This document shows positions 1-6,308 of a stretch of DNA of 6,308 nt, in pieces. The notes beneath the pieces are model-generated. The model ran no database searches. It was not told where the DNA came from and worked only from the letters and a program-made list of their open reading frames with translations. The stretch comes from a virus. Lineage: Duplodnaviria; Heunggongvirae; Uroviricota; Caudoviricetes. The stretch lies in the IMG/VR virus record IMGVR_UViG_2671180405_000010; one strand, given 5' to 3'. The position numbers were made by a program, and so were the translations under genes. Position 1 is the stretch's first letter. Each line of letters begins with the position of its first letter.

Positions 1-2
1 AA

Positions 3-221
3 AGTCATCGGGCATTATCTGAACATAAAACACTACCAATAAGTTGGAGTCATTACCAAACGGTTGAAATGTATGCCGCTACTTACGGGTCCTGTAATCC
101 TCTGAATAAACCAGAGGGAAAAGATGATTTCGACAAAATTTACCGCTTCTTGGAGGACCGCTATATCAAAAGCTTAGAGGACGCAGGGATCAAATCCCCA
201 GTGAAGTCACCATTGTCCTGA
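3..221 (+). CDS. Possible 3' end of a plus-strand gene entering from the left edge (C-terminal fragment, hypothetical protein)
   Basis: Frame 3 is open from the window edge to TGA at 219-221 and the translation (..FDKIYRFLEDRYIKSLEDAGIKSPVKSPLS) looks protein-like. It overlaps the 3' end of the minus-strand ORF 190..567 by about 30 bp, so one of the two may be wrong. No start or RBS is visible for the full gene. Confidence 0.25.
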   Translation, partial: SHRALSEHKTLPISWSHYQTVEMYAATYGSCNPLNKPEGKDDFDKIYRFLEDRYIKSLEDAGIKSPVKSPLS

Positions 222-567
222 GAACTTGCAGAACGTCATGATCATAACTTCCATCCAAACCGCGACGGCGAATTGCTTCTCGTATTACCGGAAGCAGTTC
301 GCTGGAAATCTCGGTGCATATTTCACCTGATAATACGCTTGGCTCAAGTGAGAATATTGGTGAACTTACGGTCTTGGTCTCGACAGTTTCAGAGTCAGTG
401 CCAACATTATAAAGCTCAACGAAAGCGGTCTTGATTTTCCGGGCCAGATCTTTTGCTGGCTCGCTTGCAATATCTTTCCCGATTTCTCGCAGCACAGAAT
501 GCAATGTATGAGCTGCTGTTTTCTGTACATCAGACGGTAAATCTTTAAATTCCATCGTCAGCCTCAT
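190..567 (-). CDS. Hypothetical early-left protein (125 aa, or 121 aa from the ATG at 555)
   Basis: ORF from the six-frame track. Its start ATG (567..565) shares one base with the stop of the upstream ORF (TGATG). The in-frame ATG at 555..553 has GAGG 8 nt upstream, so it is the likelier start. Hydrophilic protein with no family I recognise. Confidence 0.55.
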   Translation of the reverse strand: MRLTMEFKDLPSDVQKTAAHTLHSVLREIGKDIASEPAKDLARKIKTAFVELYNVGTDSETVETKTVSSPIFSLEPSVLSGEICTEISSELLPVIREAIRRRGLDGSYDHDVLQVLRTMVTSLGI

Positions 568-773
568 CAGTCAGTGTTTCTGGCTAACCAGCAACGCGCG
601 CCAGATTCGGTTTTAAACGTTTTGCTTTTGGTATACGTCATGGCGGTAAACGTTCCATCCTGGTTAGGGAACACGCCGCACACCAGAGATTCGTTGTTGC
701 CAAGATCGATAGTATCCATGCTGACCTCATTTCCCCTTAACGCCGGGGTGGCGGAACAAAAAACCTGCTGCAT
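567..773 (-). CDS. Small hypothetical protein (68 aa from 773; 50 aa if started at the internal ATG 719..717)
   Basis: ORF is directly upstream of and coupled to the 190..567 ORF. The internal in-frame ATG at 719..717 has a GAGGT Shine-Dalgarno 4 nt upstream, whereas the ATG at 773 has no clear RBS. A plus-strand ORF (574..786) covers the same DNA, so the coding strand is not certain. Confidence 0.4.
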   Translation of the reverse strand: MQQVFCSATPALRGNEVSMDTIDLGNNESLVCGVFPNQDGTFTAMTYTKSKTFKTESGARCWLARNTD

Positions 774-899
774 AGTTAAAGATTGAACCCTGCCGTCATG
801 TTCTTACGCCTCGGGCTGGCTACTTAACCCCTGACCACTGTCTGGTAACTCGAAGTATTGCCCTGCATTCTGTGGGGCGGGGTGGGTTGACGCCTGAAA

Positions 900-945
900 C
901 AATAGCATCATTATTTTTTTTGATGTAAATAGCATCGCTATTGTT
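900..945. promoter_or_regulatory. Putative OL-like operator/promoter region: palindrome AATAGCATCGCTATT (930-944) plus a degenerate copy AATAGCATCATTATT (901-915)
   Basis: AATAGC / GCTATT inverted half-sites around a 3-bp centre. The same motif recurs in the repressor/cro intergenic region (2039-2053). Position is upstream of the leftward genes and just beyond the terminator of the repressor operon, as for lambda OL/pL. Confidence 0.35.
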
Positions 946-954
946 TTTTGTTGG

Positions 955-982
955 GGCAAGAAAAAACCACCCTAAGGTGGTT
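955..982 (-). terminator. Rho-independent terminator downstream of the toxin gene
   Basis: On the minus-strand transcript: 7-bp stem AACCACC / GGUGGUU with loop UUAG, followed by UUUUUUCUU. It lies 17 nt past the toxin stop codon (999-1001). Confidence 0.65.
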
Positions 983-998
983 CTGTCGGCGGGAATAA

Positions 999-1289
999 TT
1001 AACTGTTTTTGCCTGGATACTGTCTTCGAGAATGCACAATATTTACTACTTCTATGCTTGATGCTGTTACTCGGTAAAGGATGATGTAGTTAGGATGAGT
1101 TACAATTTCACGAAGACCAAGAACTCGCTCGCTTGGAGGATACAGGTAAGGATGCTCTGTGAGCGGCAAAACGGATGTTTCAATTCGAATTTTCATTCTG
1201 CGTGCTGCCGCGGGATTTTCTTTAGCTATGTAGGCTACGATCTGGCGCAAATCATCACGAGCAGATGGTAGCCATAAAACGGGTAACAT
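999..1289 (-). CDS. parE: Type II toxin, RelE/ParE superfamily (ParE2-like), 96 aa
   Basis: Translation (MLPVLWLPSARDDLRQIVAYI...EHPYLYPPSERVLGLREIVTHPNYIILYRV...) matches the ParE-family pattern as I recall it. Size is typical, and the start overlaps the antitoxin stop by one base (TAATG). Confidence 0.88.
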   Translation of the reverse strand: MLPVLWLPSARDDLRQIVAYIAKENPAAARRMKIRIETSVLPLTEHPYLYPPSERVLGLREIVTHPNYIILYRVTASSIEVVNIVHSRRQYPGKNS

Positions 1290-1483
1290 TATTCACCTCT
1301 GTGAGTTGCAGCAGCAATTTGGGCAATAATTTGTTCCATTTCCGCCATTACCTCATCATGCGGAATCGCCGGGCGGGGATCCGCGAGGCTTGCTGCTACT
1401 TTGGCCCGCAGCCATTCGTTGTAACTATTTTCTTGCTCAACTGTCTCAAATTCTGAAACCATTGGGGAAAGGACTGTACTCAT
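1289..1483 (-). CDS. paaA: Antitoxin of the ParE toxin (PaaA2-like), 64 aa
   Basis: Small acidic protein (..SPMVSEFETVEQENSYNEWLRAKVAASLADPRPAIPHDEV..) immediately upstream of and coupled to the toxin gene. AGGAG RBS 8 nt upstream of the ATG. Resembles the PaaA2 antitoxin of E. coli O157 prophages from memory. Confidence 0.82.
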   Translation of the reverse strand: MSTVLSPMVSEFETVEQENSYNEWLRAKVAASLADPRPAIPHDEVMAEMEQIIAQIAAATHRGE

Positions 1484-1502: not shown

Positions 1503-2003
1503 TTAGGCGCGACGGCCTTTTTGTGCAGCTAACCACCGCGCAACCGTACGATCCATTGATTCTTTTTTATCTTTCATCTCCTGAAGCATGTGTTCTTGAT
1601 CTTCTTTCGGAAAAGCTCTGAACGTATGGATTAAATCTCGTTCCATCGGCTCTACGGCAAACGGTAGTTCATCCTCTGTTTGTTCTGTGTCTGCTGGTAA
1701 TGCGACTATGTTATCTTGCTGTGGTTCTCGACAATACATCCTTGCAATTTGCAGCAAATCTACCATGTCTGGCCTGATTGACTCAGGGGGAACTTTCAGT
1801 AAGCCAGCAAACTTTAGAACAGCCTCAAGGTTTAGTGGGGTTTGACCATTTAGGTAGTGACTTACCGCCCCTTGTGTTGAAAACCCCATAATTTCCGCCG
1901 CACGTTCCTGAGTCAATCCCAACTGAGATTTCTTTGCCATCCAGATTTCTTTCAGTCTTCTGGCGGCGTTGAGGTCGGTGTCTGACAATGATTTTCTTTT
2001 CAT
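1503..2003 (-). CDS. paaR: cI-like prophage repressor with XRE-type HTH (PaaR2/RacR-like), regulator of the downstream TA pair
   Basis: HTH signature (LGLTQERAAEIMGFSTQGAVSHYLNG). Same strand as and 19 nt upstream of the antitoxin gene; divergent from the Cro-like gene. Start chosen at ATG 2003..2001 (MKRKSLSD...); the track ORF extends to a GTG at 2033 with no RBS. No obvious S24 peptidase Ser/Lys domain. Confidence 0.8.
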   Translation of the reverse strand: MKRKSLSDTDLNAARRLKEIWMAKKSQLGLTQERAAEIMGFSTQGAVSHYLNGQTPLNLEAVLKFAGLLKVPPESIRPDMVDLLQIARMYCREPQQDNIVALPADTEQTEDELPFAVEPMERDLIHTFRAFPKEDQEHMLQEMKDKKESMDRTVARWLAAQKGRRA

Positions 2004-2038
2004 ACATCCAATTCTAATAAGATTGCTAATCACTTTGA

Positions 2039-5436: not shown

Positions 5437-5451
5437 TTGCCGGGGGCGCTT

Positions 5452-5833
5452 ATGGCAAAAGTATTTACACAGGAAGAGCGGGAAAAAATTAAGGGGCAGG
5501 TTGTTGAACTCGTACGCCAGAGTGGGCGCGAGACGTTACGACAACTGGAAGCTAAAACCGGGGCGACAAGATATTTAATAAGCGTTCTCGCCAGAGAGCT
5601 GGTTGCCAGTGGGGATGTATACAACTCTGGCTACGGGTTATTCCCGTCTGAACAGGCTCGTAAGGACTGGCAAAACGCCCGCAAAAAACTCTCGAGGGCA
5701 AAGCTGAAGAAACCATCTGTGGTTGATCCGGACCTTATCTGGTCATTACCAGACGGAGAAATACGCCGCTACGACAGACATCAGAACATAATCTGTCGCG
5801 AGTGCCGGAAGAGTGAAGTTATGCAGCGTGTAC
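5452..5833 (+). CDS. Hypothetical protein, 5' portion; interrupted by the N-run and possibly continuing to a stop at 6181-6183
   Basis: ATG at 5452 (MAKVFTQEEREKIKGQ...), 15 nt after the previous stop. The reading frame is open up to the N-run. If the N-run length is accurate, the frame reconnects to ...GFLSG and a TAA at 6181-6183. Contains a CxxC motif (CRECRK) just before the gap. Confidence 0.55.
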
Positions 5834-6165
5834 NNNNNNNNNNNNNNNNNNNNNNNNNNNNNNNNNNNNNNNNNNNNNNNNNNNNNNNNNNNNNNNNNNN
5901 NNNNNNNNNNNNNNNNNNNNNNNNNNNNNNNNNNNNNNNNNNNNNNNNNNNNNNNNNNNNNNNNNNNNNNNNNNNNNNNNNNNNNNNNNNNNNNNNNNNN
6001 NNNNNNNNNNNNNNNNNNNNNNNNNNNNNNNNNNNNNNNNNNNNNNNNNNNNNNNNNNNNNNNNNNNNNNNNNNNNNNNNNNNNNNNNNNNNNNNNNNNN
6101 NNNNNNNNNNNNNNNNNNNNNNNNNNNNNNNNNNNNNNNNNNNNNNNNNNNNNNNNNNNNNNNNN
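5834..6165. other. Run of 332 N (assembly gap or masked sequence)
   Basis: Directly visible in the sequence. It lies inside an apparent CDS. Confidence 1.
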
Positions 6166-6308
6166 GGCTTTCTATCAGGGTAATTTTCAGAAGGTGCTGT
6201 TGTGAGCCAAATTAACAATCGGAACTTCGTGAAGAGAAAGCATAATCCAAAATCTGAATAATTAAGTTCAGCACTGTGGTGATGCTGCCAACTTACTGAT
6301 TTAGTGTA

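Follow-up and report, generated by a model that had tools for sequence, protein, structure and literature searches.

A ydfA orthologue and a variable cassette gene as candidate first cistrons of an early-left operon in a lambdoid prophage

Two small minus-strand genes lie near the left end of a 6,308-nucleotide (nt) stretch of viral DNA (IMG/VR record IMGVR_UViG_2671180405_000010, Caudoviricetes; hereafter, the window). A preliminary description of this stretch had presented them as an uncharacterised, translationally coupled pair in an early-left position. We conclude that the pair belongs to the usual content of prophages and does not constitute a new coupled system, because one gene is the known ydfA and the other is a swappable cassette gene. 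In the explanation that we favour, with a probability of about 0.5 for the whole of it, the region comprises the first two cistrons of a repressor-controlled early-left operon of the dicBF type, carried by a Qin/CP-933P-type lambdoid prophage. Each gene would be translated from its own GAGG site at an internal ATG, and the two would stand 11 nt apart.

The open reading frames (ORFs) described earlier were all found in the sequence. On the minus strand, ORFs 773..567 (68 amino acids, aa) and 567..190 (125 aa) are present, TGA 569..567 shares its A with ATG 567..565 to give TGATG, and two internal ATGs are preceded by GAGG: the one at 728..725 stands 5 nt ahead of ATG 719..717, and the one at 565..562 stands 6 nt ahead of ATG 555..553. 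The junction reads AAC ACT GAC TGA TGA GG CTGACG ATG GAA TTT. Comparison with relatives shows, however, that the shorter forms, of 50 aa (719..567) and 121 aa (555..190), are the genes. The Pfam DUF1391 alignment begins at residue 20 of the 68-aa form, and upstream of ATG 719 the relatives (61 distinct sequences) often show in-frame stops, no ATG, or frameshifting indels of 1-2 nt in C/T runs. The additional part of the 68-aa reading (773..720) falls inside the conserved leader of the transcript; its "ATPALRGNEVS" stretch looks coding but is the conserved Shine-Dalgarno (SD) region. All homologues of the 121-aa protein start with MEF, and GAGG or GGGG is found 5-7 nt upstream of the MEF ATG in every genomic context, including loci with no preceding ydfA. 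In the syntenic prophage of E. coli ETEC4090, RefSeq annotates genes of 153 nt and 366 nt with 11 nt between them. From the starts in relatives, the conservation of MEF and its SD sequence and the RefSeq annotation, we conclude that the real products are of 50 and 121 aa. The 68-aa and 125-aa forms and the TGATG overlap were discarded on this comparative start-codon evidence, the overlap belonging to an ATG that is not used. Translational coupling through TGATG, as first proposed, is therefore not upheld: the starts used leave an 11-nt gap, and gene 2 has its own SD sequence everywhere, also in the absence of ydfA.

The view that both genes are real and lie on the minus strand was borne out. 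The 121-aa frame is open in 16/16 homologues and is the only one of six frames that is stop-free in all 16 distinct homologous DNA sequences, while the 50-aa product matches DUF1391. Frame conservation had been named beforehand as the point on which the minus-strand reading could fall. Of 48 distinct relatives, 22 have stops inside the plus-strand ORF 574..786, which also has no family match and was rejected as a real gene. The plus-strand frame open to 221 is a separate, real-looking convergent gene rather than an alternative reading of the pair.

By its sequence, gene 1 is an orthologue of YdfA/YdaF (DUF1391), a protein known from K-12, and the earlier remark that neither product could be recognised fails in its case. 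The Pfam profile PF07151 (DUF1391) scored 97.5-98.9 bits against a cut-off of 27.3, with residues 2-48 aligned to profile positions 1-47 of 48, and the protein is 90% identical to YdfA of E. coli K-12. YdfA-like DNA is present in 3747 of 5426 complete E. coli genomes, and 19 phage records contain the protein, among them those of Serratia, Pantoea and Salicola phages. Its conservation is 80-98% across Escherichia and Salmonella, and 55-69% in the Serratia, Pantoea and Salicola phages. In the window, ydfA is the first gene after the operators and the leader, a promoter-proximal position that it also holds in Serratia phage OS31 and in Rac-like phages. In K-12, the dicBF operon of prophage Qin begins with ydfA, and ydfA mRNA starts at the DicA-repressed dicBp (PMC10448788). 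The functions of ydfA, ydfB and ydfC are given as unknown (PMC5069750, PMC10448788, bioRxiv 2024.09.21.614188), that of YdfA still so in papers of 2023 and 2024. When K-12 ydfA-ydfB-ydfC-ydfD was induced with dicF and dicB deleted, no growth inhibition was observed (PMC5069750). This result argues against host killing by YdfA, a role that had been considered on the basis of map position and that is not favoured here.

An AlphaFold 2 model of YdfA (predicted local distance difference test score, pLDDT, 81) has a beta-beta-beta-alpha topology, with a three-stranded sheet and a helix. The protein is acidic (isoelectric point, pI, 5.05), with few basic residues in the sheet region. A Foldseek search with the model returned AP2/ERF domains (1gcc) as the nearest solved folds, with low root-mean-square deviation and non-significant scores, and also listed the arm-binding domain of lambda Int (1kjk). 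A Pfam AP2 or arm-domain match to YdfA was not obtained even at E = 10. Thus, YdfA is like AP2/ERF domains and the N-terminal arm-binding domain of lambda Int in predicted topology, but differs from them in being acidic and in having no profile match, and we treat the resemblance of the model to this DNA-binding fold as a lead only. In records ON470580, ON470583, ON470595, ON470614, ON470616 and PV340562, YdfA/YdaF is labelled "head-DNA stabilization protein D". Between the YdfA profile and the gpD/SHP head-decoration protein, only a local match of 19 residues (E 0.025) was found, and the label looks like an annotation artefact for that reason. A "ydfA" reported on IncI plasmids (PMC12111858) stands in another context, that of plasmids, and was not used.

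Gene 2 is a member of an unnamed family, designated "MEFKDLP" here. The match to phrog_33007 covers residues 5-125 of the 125-aa form on positions 1-121 of 121, and the first ~50-55 residues also match four more PHROGs of differing length (9419, 1363, 2151 and 6937). The 121-aa protein consists of a helical hairpin (aa 1-50), an acidic linker (51-80) and a conserved C-terminal module (81-121). A profile search of 1.84 billion representatives revealed 91 cluster representatives that share the N-terminal domain of ~50 residues, many of them stand-alone proteins of 50-66 aa. Across the 80 viral loci described below, the MEFKDLP ORF comes in a dozen lengths, from 52 to 212 aa; the C-terminus is therefore exchanged between prophages. 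The ratio of nonsynonymous to synonymous substitution rates (dN/dS) of the 121-aa gene is ~0.35 against the most divergent homologue, with values of 0.29 for the N-terminal part, 0.24 for the C-terminal part and a higher value for the acidic linker. The protein is acidic as well (pI 5.16). Its AlphaFold 2 model is confident only for the helical hairpin (residues 8-53), and a fold search of BFVD with this model matched only stand-alone homologues of the hairpin. Homology to YdfB or YdfC was considered and rejected, as BLAST shows no similarity. No significant Pfam domain was found in 76 members carrying the MEFKDLP domain, nor any PDB sequence relative, and in a literature search the MEFKDLP sequence and these PHROGs were mentioned in no paper.

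Searches of Pfam, NCBIfam, PADLOC and PDB sequences with both proteins, five other C-terminal variants and six convergent ORFs returned only DUF1391 and PHROGs of unknown function. The sensitive profile searches proposed in the preliminary description thus yielded a family for gene 1 (DUF1391) and, for gene 2, only PHROGs of unknown function; structure prediction, proposed alongside, gave a good model of YdfA (pLDDT 81) and a poor one of the 121-aa protein (pLDDT 54). The observation that neither protein has an N-like Arg-rich N-terminus agrees with both sequences and with pI values of ~5.

The placement of the pair in an early-left, pL-type position, made earlier, held up. A palindrome, AATAGCnnnGCTATT, has three matches in the window with no more than one mismatch, where 0.01 would be expected. 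One copy (928-942) is located just upstream of the pair, and two (2039-2078) lie between the helix-turn-helix (HTH) repressor gene and the cro-like gene; with weaker copies at 901-915 and 2016-2030, there are two left and three right sites. The placement holds because palindromes upstream of the pair recur between repressor and cro. Syntenic relatives that have both genes continue, in the same direction of transcription, with DicF (Rfam, 72.5 bits), dicB, ydfD, a gene for a RecE-like exonuclease, xis and int; two of them, L001 and L002, were seen to carry both genes together with DicF (72.5 bits) and dicB. Rfam detected no DicF within the window, which ends in IS1 at positions 1-57. In relatives, a promoter-like TTGAC(T/C)-N16/17-TAAACT stands directly upstream of the same leader, and by analogous geometry an extended -10 element, TGcTATTGT (907..899), is proposed for the window. 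The operators, the leader, a layout like that of CP-933P and the downstream genes of relatives together make the early-left assignment well supported.

The leader of ~160 nt (732-889), which begins immediately after the putative promoter, is conserved at 75-95% identity among Qin-like, Rac-like, Evi and pPE4 phages, whatever the repressor or immunity type or the first gene. Conservation is at the level of primary sequence, and the 5' end is very rich in C. A structured leader RNA of the put or nut kind was rejected: the fold has z = +1.0 relative to shuffled sequences, there is no Rfam match, and one compensatory pair was found among 35 predicted (covariation term -0.15). The C-rich end would suit the loading of Rho, and the leader could serve either for that purpose or for protein binding. 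It contains an invariant block, GAGGCGTAAGAACATG, with a further ATG (799..797) ahead of the ydfA start; in many relatives this ATG shares the ydfA frame, which yields the 77-aa forms in databases, and in others indels in T/C runs have moved it out of frame. Features of the region are collected in Table 1.

Table 1. Features in and around the small-gene pair (window coordinates; SD, Shine-Dalgarno sequence; uORF, upstream open reading frame)
Feature	Position	Strand	Remarks
IS1 terminal inverted-repeat end	1..57		96.7% match to IS1 insAB records; thousands of matching places in E. coli genomes
IS1-truncated remnant, codons 17-66 of the convergent 66-aa gene (PHROG 34441)	69..221	+	phrog_34441 E 6e-36
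121-aa MEFKDLP gene (PHROG 33007)	190..555	-	phrog_33007 E 4.9e-80
11-nt spacer TGAGGCTGACG	556..566	-	holds gene 2 SD GAGG 565..562
ydfA orthologue (DUF1391), 50 aa	567..719	-	ATG 719..717; tandem stops TGA TGA 569..564
Conserved 5' leader of the early-left transcript	720..889	-	C-rich 5' end, 7-codon uORF, ydfA SD GAGG 728..725
uORF MTAGFNL, 7 codons	799..776	-	the only product of the GAGGCGTAAGAACATG ATG in the window
Putative pL/OL	899..942	-	operator palindromes 901-915, 928-942; proposed extended -10 TGcTATTGT 907..899
ParE toxin gene	999..1289	-	rexAB-like position, between repressor and pL
PaaA2 antitoxin gene	1289..1483	-	rexAB-like position, between repressor and pL
HTH repressor gene	1503..2033	-	followed by PaaA2 and ParE on the same strand

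A stem-loop with a T-run after parE (~962-990, minus strand) was read as a putative terminator; the scan tool made no call there. The right end of the window is unreadable because of a masked run of N at ~5830-6170, inside an ORF that starts at 5437.

To what extent the two genes form a pair was assessed in 80 IMG/VR loci that hold a MEFKDLP-type gene, most of them near-identical E. coli prophages. One contig scan with strict search patterns gave only 4 loci. In 72 of the 80, ydfA is located upstream of the MEFKDLP gene, at a distance of 11 nt in 64 loci and of 141 nt in eight. The longer gap has a different spacer sequence and is most simply taken as one ydfB-sized gene in between, as the K-12 spacing suggests; ydfB itself was observed immediately upstream in locus L043 only. 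Eight loci have no ydfA. Six of these were examined: in five (Enterobacter-, Serratia- and other-type prophages), no other ORF separates the MEFKDLP gene from the repressor, and in the sixth only ydfB intervenes. In phage Evi, again with no ydfA, the MEFKDLP gene is third. YdfA occurs with no MEFKDLP gene in K-12 Qin, Tritos and Rac-like phages, and in many prophages it is followed by ydfB/ydfC or preceded by ydaG. Complete E. coli genomes with the full pair number 397, and mEp460_ev081 is the one deposited phage that has it. Conservation as a pair, on which the preliminary description had placed weight, was thus half confirmed: the pair is common, but it is not obligate, and each gene is widely found alone. 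We conclude that the two genes are independent, often linked cassettes in a mosaic, hypervariable slot. A predicted hairpin hiding the SD sequence of gene 2 was discarded as evidence of coupling, the junction folding no better than shuffled sequence (z = 0.07). Coupling by reinitiation across the 11-nt gap is possible, and is not required.

A more consistent neighbour of the 121-aa gene than YdfA is the convergent 66-aa gene, of which the window holds a remnant. The phrog_34441 alignment covers residues 17-66 of 66, and the remnant and the 3' end of the 121-aa gene share 32 nt. Wherever related loci carry the 66-aa ORF uninterrupted, its frame is intact, and it has 10, 2 and 9 variable sites at the three codon positions, respectively. 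The 121-aa variant is accompanied by the convergent 66-aa ORF in 44/44 loci and the 212-aa variant by a 69-aa ORF in 26/26, and five further MEFKDLP variants likewise pair with a convergent ORF of their own, each such ORF being a distinct PHROG of unknown function. The convergent ORFs overlap or abut the 3' end of their MEFKDLP variant (window 69-221; L001 5964-6164; L007 2672-2881; L004 1199-1432), and four different ones have in common a conserved upstream region that includes a GGAGG SD sequence. The slot in the Rac-like phage 666R9 has, convergent with ydaF, a gene whose annotation is sieB (superinfection exclusion protein B). On the strand not used by the operon, a promoter-like TTAACA-N16-GAGAAT is conserved between dicB and dicF (L001 5526-5553 +; L007 2172-2199 +). 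It would give a DicF-antisense transcript directed toward the convergent ORFs, and some phage records annotate a 51-aa ORF there.

Homology with syntenic intact prophages begins at base 58 of the window, and IMG/VR contigs L009 and L010 have the same IS1 junction. The insertion lies 132 nt beyond gene 2 and removes the first 16 codons of the 66-aa gene; with it, the DicF-dicB-exo-int part of the operon is no longer joined to ydfA and the 121-aa gene.

If the region is the head of a dicBF-type operon, both genes would be silent in the lysogen and would be expressed immediately upon derepression. YdfA would act as a 50-aa acidic beta3-alpha domain, and the product of gene 2 as a conserved hairpin "handle" joined to an exchangeable C-terminal module. 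Both would be small accessory proteins that bind other proteins rather than DNA, and their tasks may be host takeover, exclusion or counter-defence, by analogy with other lambdoid early-left genes. Our best guess, held with modest confidence, is that they are non-essential, non-lethal early proteins that act through protein-protein contacts. Several points weigh against this explanation. A consensus scan of the minus strand at 890-950 revealed no sigma-70 promoter, and 19 nt separate the proposed -10 element from the nearest -35-like hexamer. The role in host interaction or counter-defence is suggested by position, size, variability and analogy only; the data on non-toxicity cover K-12 YdfA and not the 121-aa protein; and the model of the latter is poor (pLDDT 54).

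The most interesting alternative makes the convergent gene the partner of the 121-aa protein. Each C-terminal module would be a lytic-phase neutraliser, or "escape" factor, of an exclusion or defence protein expressed in the lysogen, and early-left transcription would interfere as well, by antisense or collision. The one-to-one mapping of variants (44/44 for 121 aa/66 aa, 26/26 for 212 aa/69 aa, and five more), the coding-type substitution pattern of the 66-aa ORF, the GGAGG-SD upstream region common to four convergent ORFs and the sieB annotation in the equivalent slot of 666R9 are all consistent with such a partnership. Physical linkage alone, however, can explain the co-occurrence of adjacent overlapping genes, and since it could produce the one-to-one mapping we rank the idea as a rival, and an unlikely one. 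Moreover, the 52-aa stand-alone hairpin variants have a convergent ORF yet no C-terminal module, no convincing promoter was seen directly upstream of the convergent ORFs, and none of these proteins matches PADLOC or Pfam. Less likely still, taken as a whole, is a picture in which the stretch from ydfA to dicF is a dedicated diversity slot of Qin- and Rac-type prophages that exchanges tail-to-tail gene pairs, flanked by the conserved N-terminal MEFKDLP "handle" and, on the other strand, by a conserved platform for ribosome binding. In each pair, an exclusion or defence protein expressed in the lysogen would take the place of the Rac-like sieB; its cognate partner, fused to the handle, would neutralise it early in the lytic cycle; and the C-rich leader would gate the operon via Rho. 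If the slot does hold exclusion and escape functions, the prophage defence hotspots known so far would gain a lambdoid one; otherwise the content of the slot is routine mosaic prophage material.

The remaining explanations concern the pair itself. One or both proteins, together with the leader, could control elongation of early-left transcription in an N/nut-like or anti-Rho manner, allowing read-through of the DicF terminator into dicB, exo, xis and int. The promoter-proximal location of the genes, which is that of lambda N, P22 gene 24 and HK022 nun, would suit such a function, as would the ~160-nt leader with its C-rich 5' end conserved across immunity types, the terminator that follows dicF in K-12 (PMC5069750), the weak likeness of the YdfA fold to nucleic-acid-binding beta3-alpha domains, and an RRR cluster at residues 95-97 of the 121-aa protein. 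We nevertheless consider it quite improbable: neither gene is universal where the leader and downstream genes are shared (phage 640R1 has neither, Evi has no ydfA, and K-12 Qin and Tritos have no MEFKDLP gene), both proteins are acidic and have no N-terminal Arg-rich motif, the RRR varies among homologues (C or H), and the leader has no conserved hairpin (1/35 compensatory pairs) and no Rfam match. An obligate two-protein module of YdfA and the 121-aa protein, toxin-antitoxin-like or a heterodimeric effector whose stoichiometry is set by translational coupling, could be read from the 11-nt spacing with tandem stops beside the second SD sequence, from possible pairing of the ydfA 3' end with the SD region in a hairpin (GUUAGCC/GGCUGAC), and from adjacency in 72/80 viral loci and 397 E. 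coli genomes. Adjacency is largely inheritance, however, because the 80 loci are mostly near-identical E. coli prophages, and the junction fold (z = 0.07) is no better than that of shuffled sequence. Each gene also occurs without the other, the SD sequence and MEF start are found after ydfB, after ydfC or directly after the leader, induction of the YdfA-containing operon is not toxic in K-12, and no toxin or antitoxin family is matched; we regard such a module as very doubtful. The least probable of all, with hardly any weight in our estimate, is that the ORFs are non-functional and decaying, left behind in a defective prophage. In its favour, the operon has already been broken and the neighbouring gene cut short by IS1, and the 121-aa gene is under no more than moderate purifying selection. 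Against decay, neither ORF is interrupted in the window or in any relative, dN/dS is 0.35, YdfA is 80-98% conserved in Escherichia and Salmonella and 55-69% in the Serratia, Pantoea and Salicola phages, and a deposited phage genome, mEp460_ev081, has the pair.

YdfA-like DNA, present in about two thirds of complete E. coli genomes, heads dicBF, and the remaining products of this operon regulate cell division, sugar uptake and phage resistance. Placing the window pair in a dicBF-type operon corrects the gene starts and removes the idea of a special overlapping pair. It also provides a better-defined unit for experiments, namely a recombining slot with a hairpin-tagged variable protein and a convergent partner gene.

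The early-left genes of lambda (N, ral, sieB, cIII, kil and gam) are small and mostly non-essential, are expressed from pL on derepression, and act on targets in the host or in competing phages. The window pair occupies the same map position relative to cI and OL, but has no sequence or profile similarity to any of these genes and no Arg-rich motif. Specifically, the lambda N type is not indicated, as there is neither an N-terminal Arg-rich motif nor a leader hairpin (boxB/nut) supported by covariation. Neither is a type II toxin-antitoxin system, there being no toxin or antitoxin hits in Pfam, NCBIfam or PADLOC, and the K-12 ydfA operon being non-inhibitory (PMC5069750). The racR-ydaG-ydaF region of Rac resembles the window in its conserved leader, in a DUF1391 gene (ydaF) among the first early-left genes, and in a gene on the opposite strand that converges on the end of the small-gene block. 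It differs in that ydaG precedes ydaF, the MEFKDLP gene is missing, and the convergent sieB is unrelated in sequence to the 66-aa ORF. In CP-933P of E. coli O157:H7, PL with its OL operators has been mapped beside paaR2-paaA2-parE2 and assayed with reporters (PMC8630535). That prophage (PRM/PR/PL933P; PMC8630535) shares with the window the order HTH repressor, PaaA2, ParE, left operators that resemble the right ones, and diverging ydaS/cro-like and YdaT genes. Its reported repeat consensus, GTTTAGTAA (PMC8630535), is unlike the predicted operator of the window, AATAGCnnnGCTATT, and a different immunity specificity is therefore implied. With respect to the dicBF operon of K-12 Qin (dicBp-ydfA-ydfB-ydfC-dicF-dicB-ydfD, DicA-repressed), the window has another immunity type (repressor and operators) and a PaaA2-ParE cassette, its dicF-dicB part is cut off by IS1, and an unrelated 121-aa gene and the convergent 66-aa gene replace ydfB and ydfC. 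The first gene is nonetheless the same in both (YdfA, 90% identical), it stands in the same position after a cI-like repressor, and relatives of the window share the downstream DicF, dicB, ydfD, exonuclease and int.

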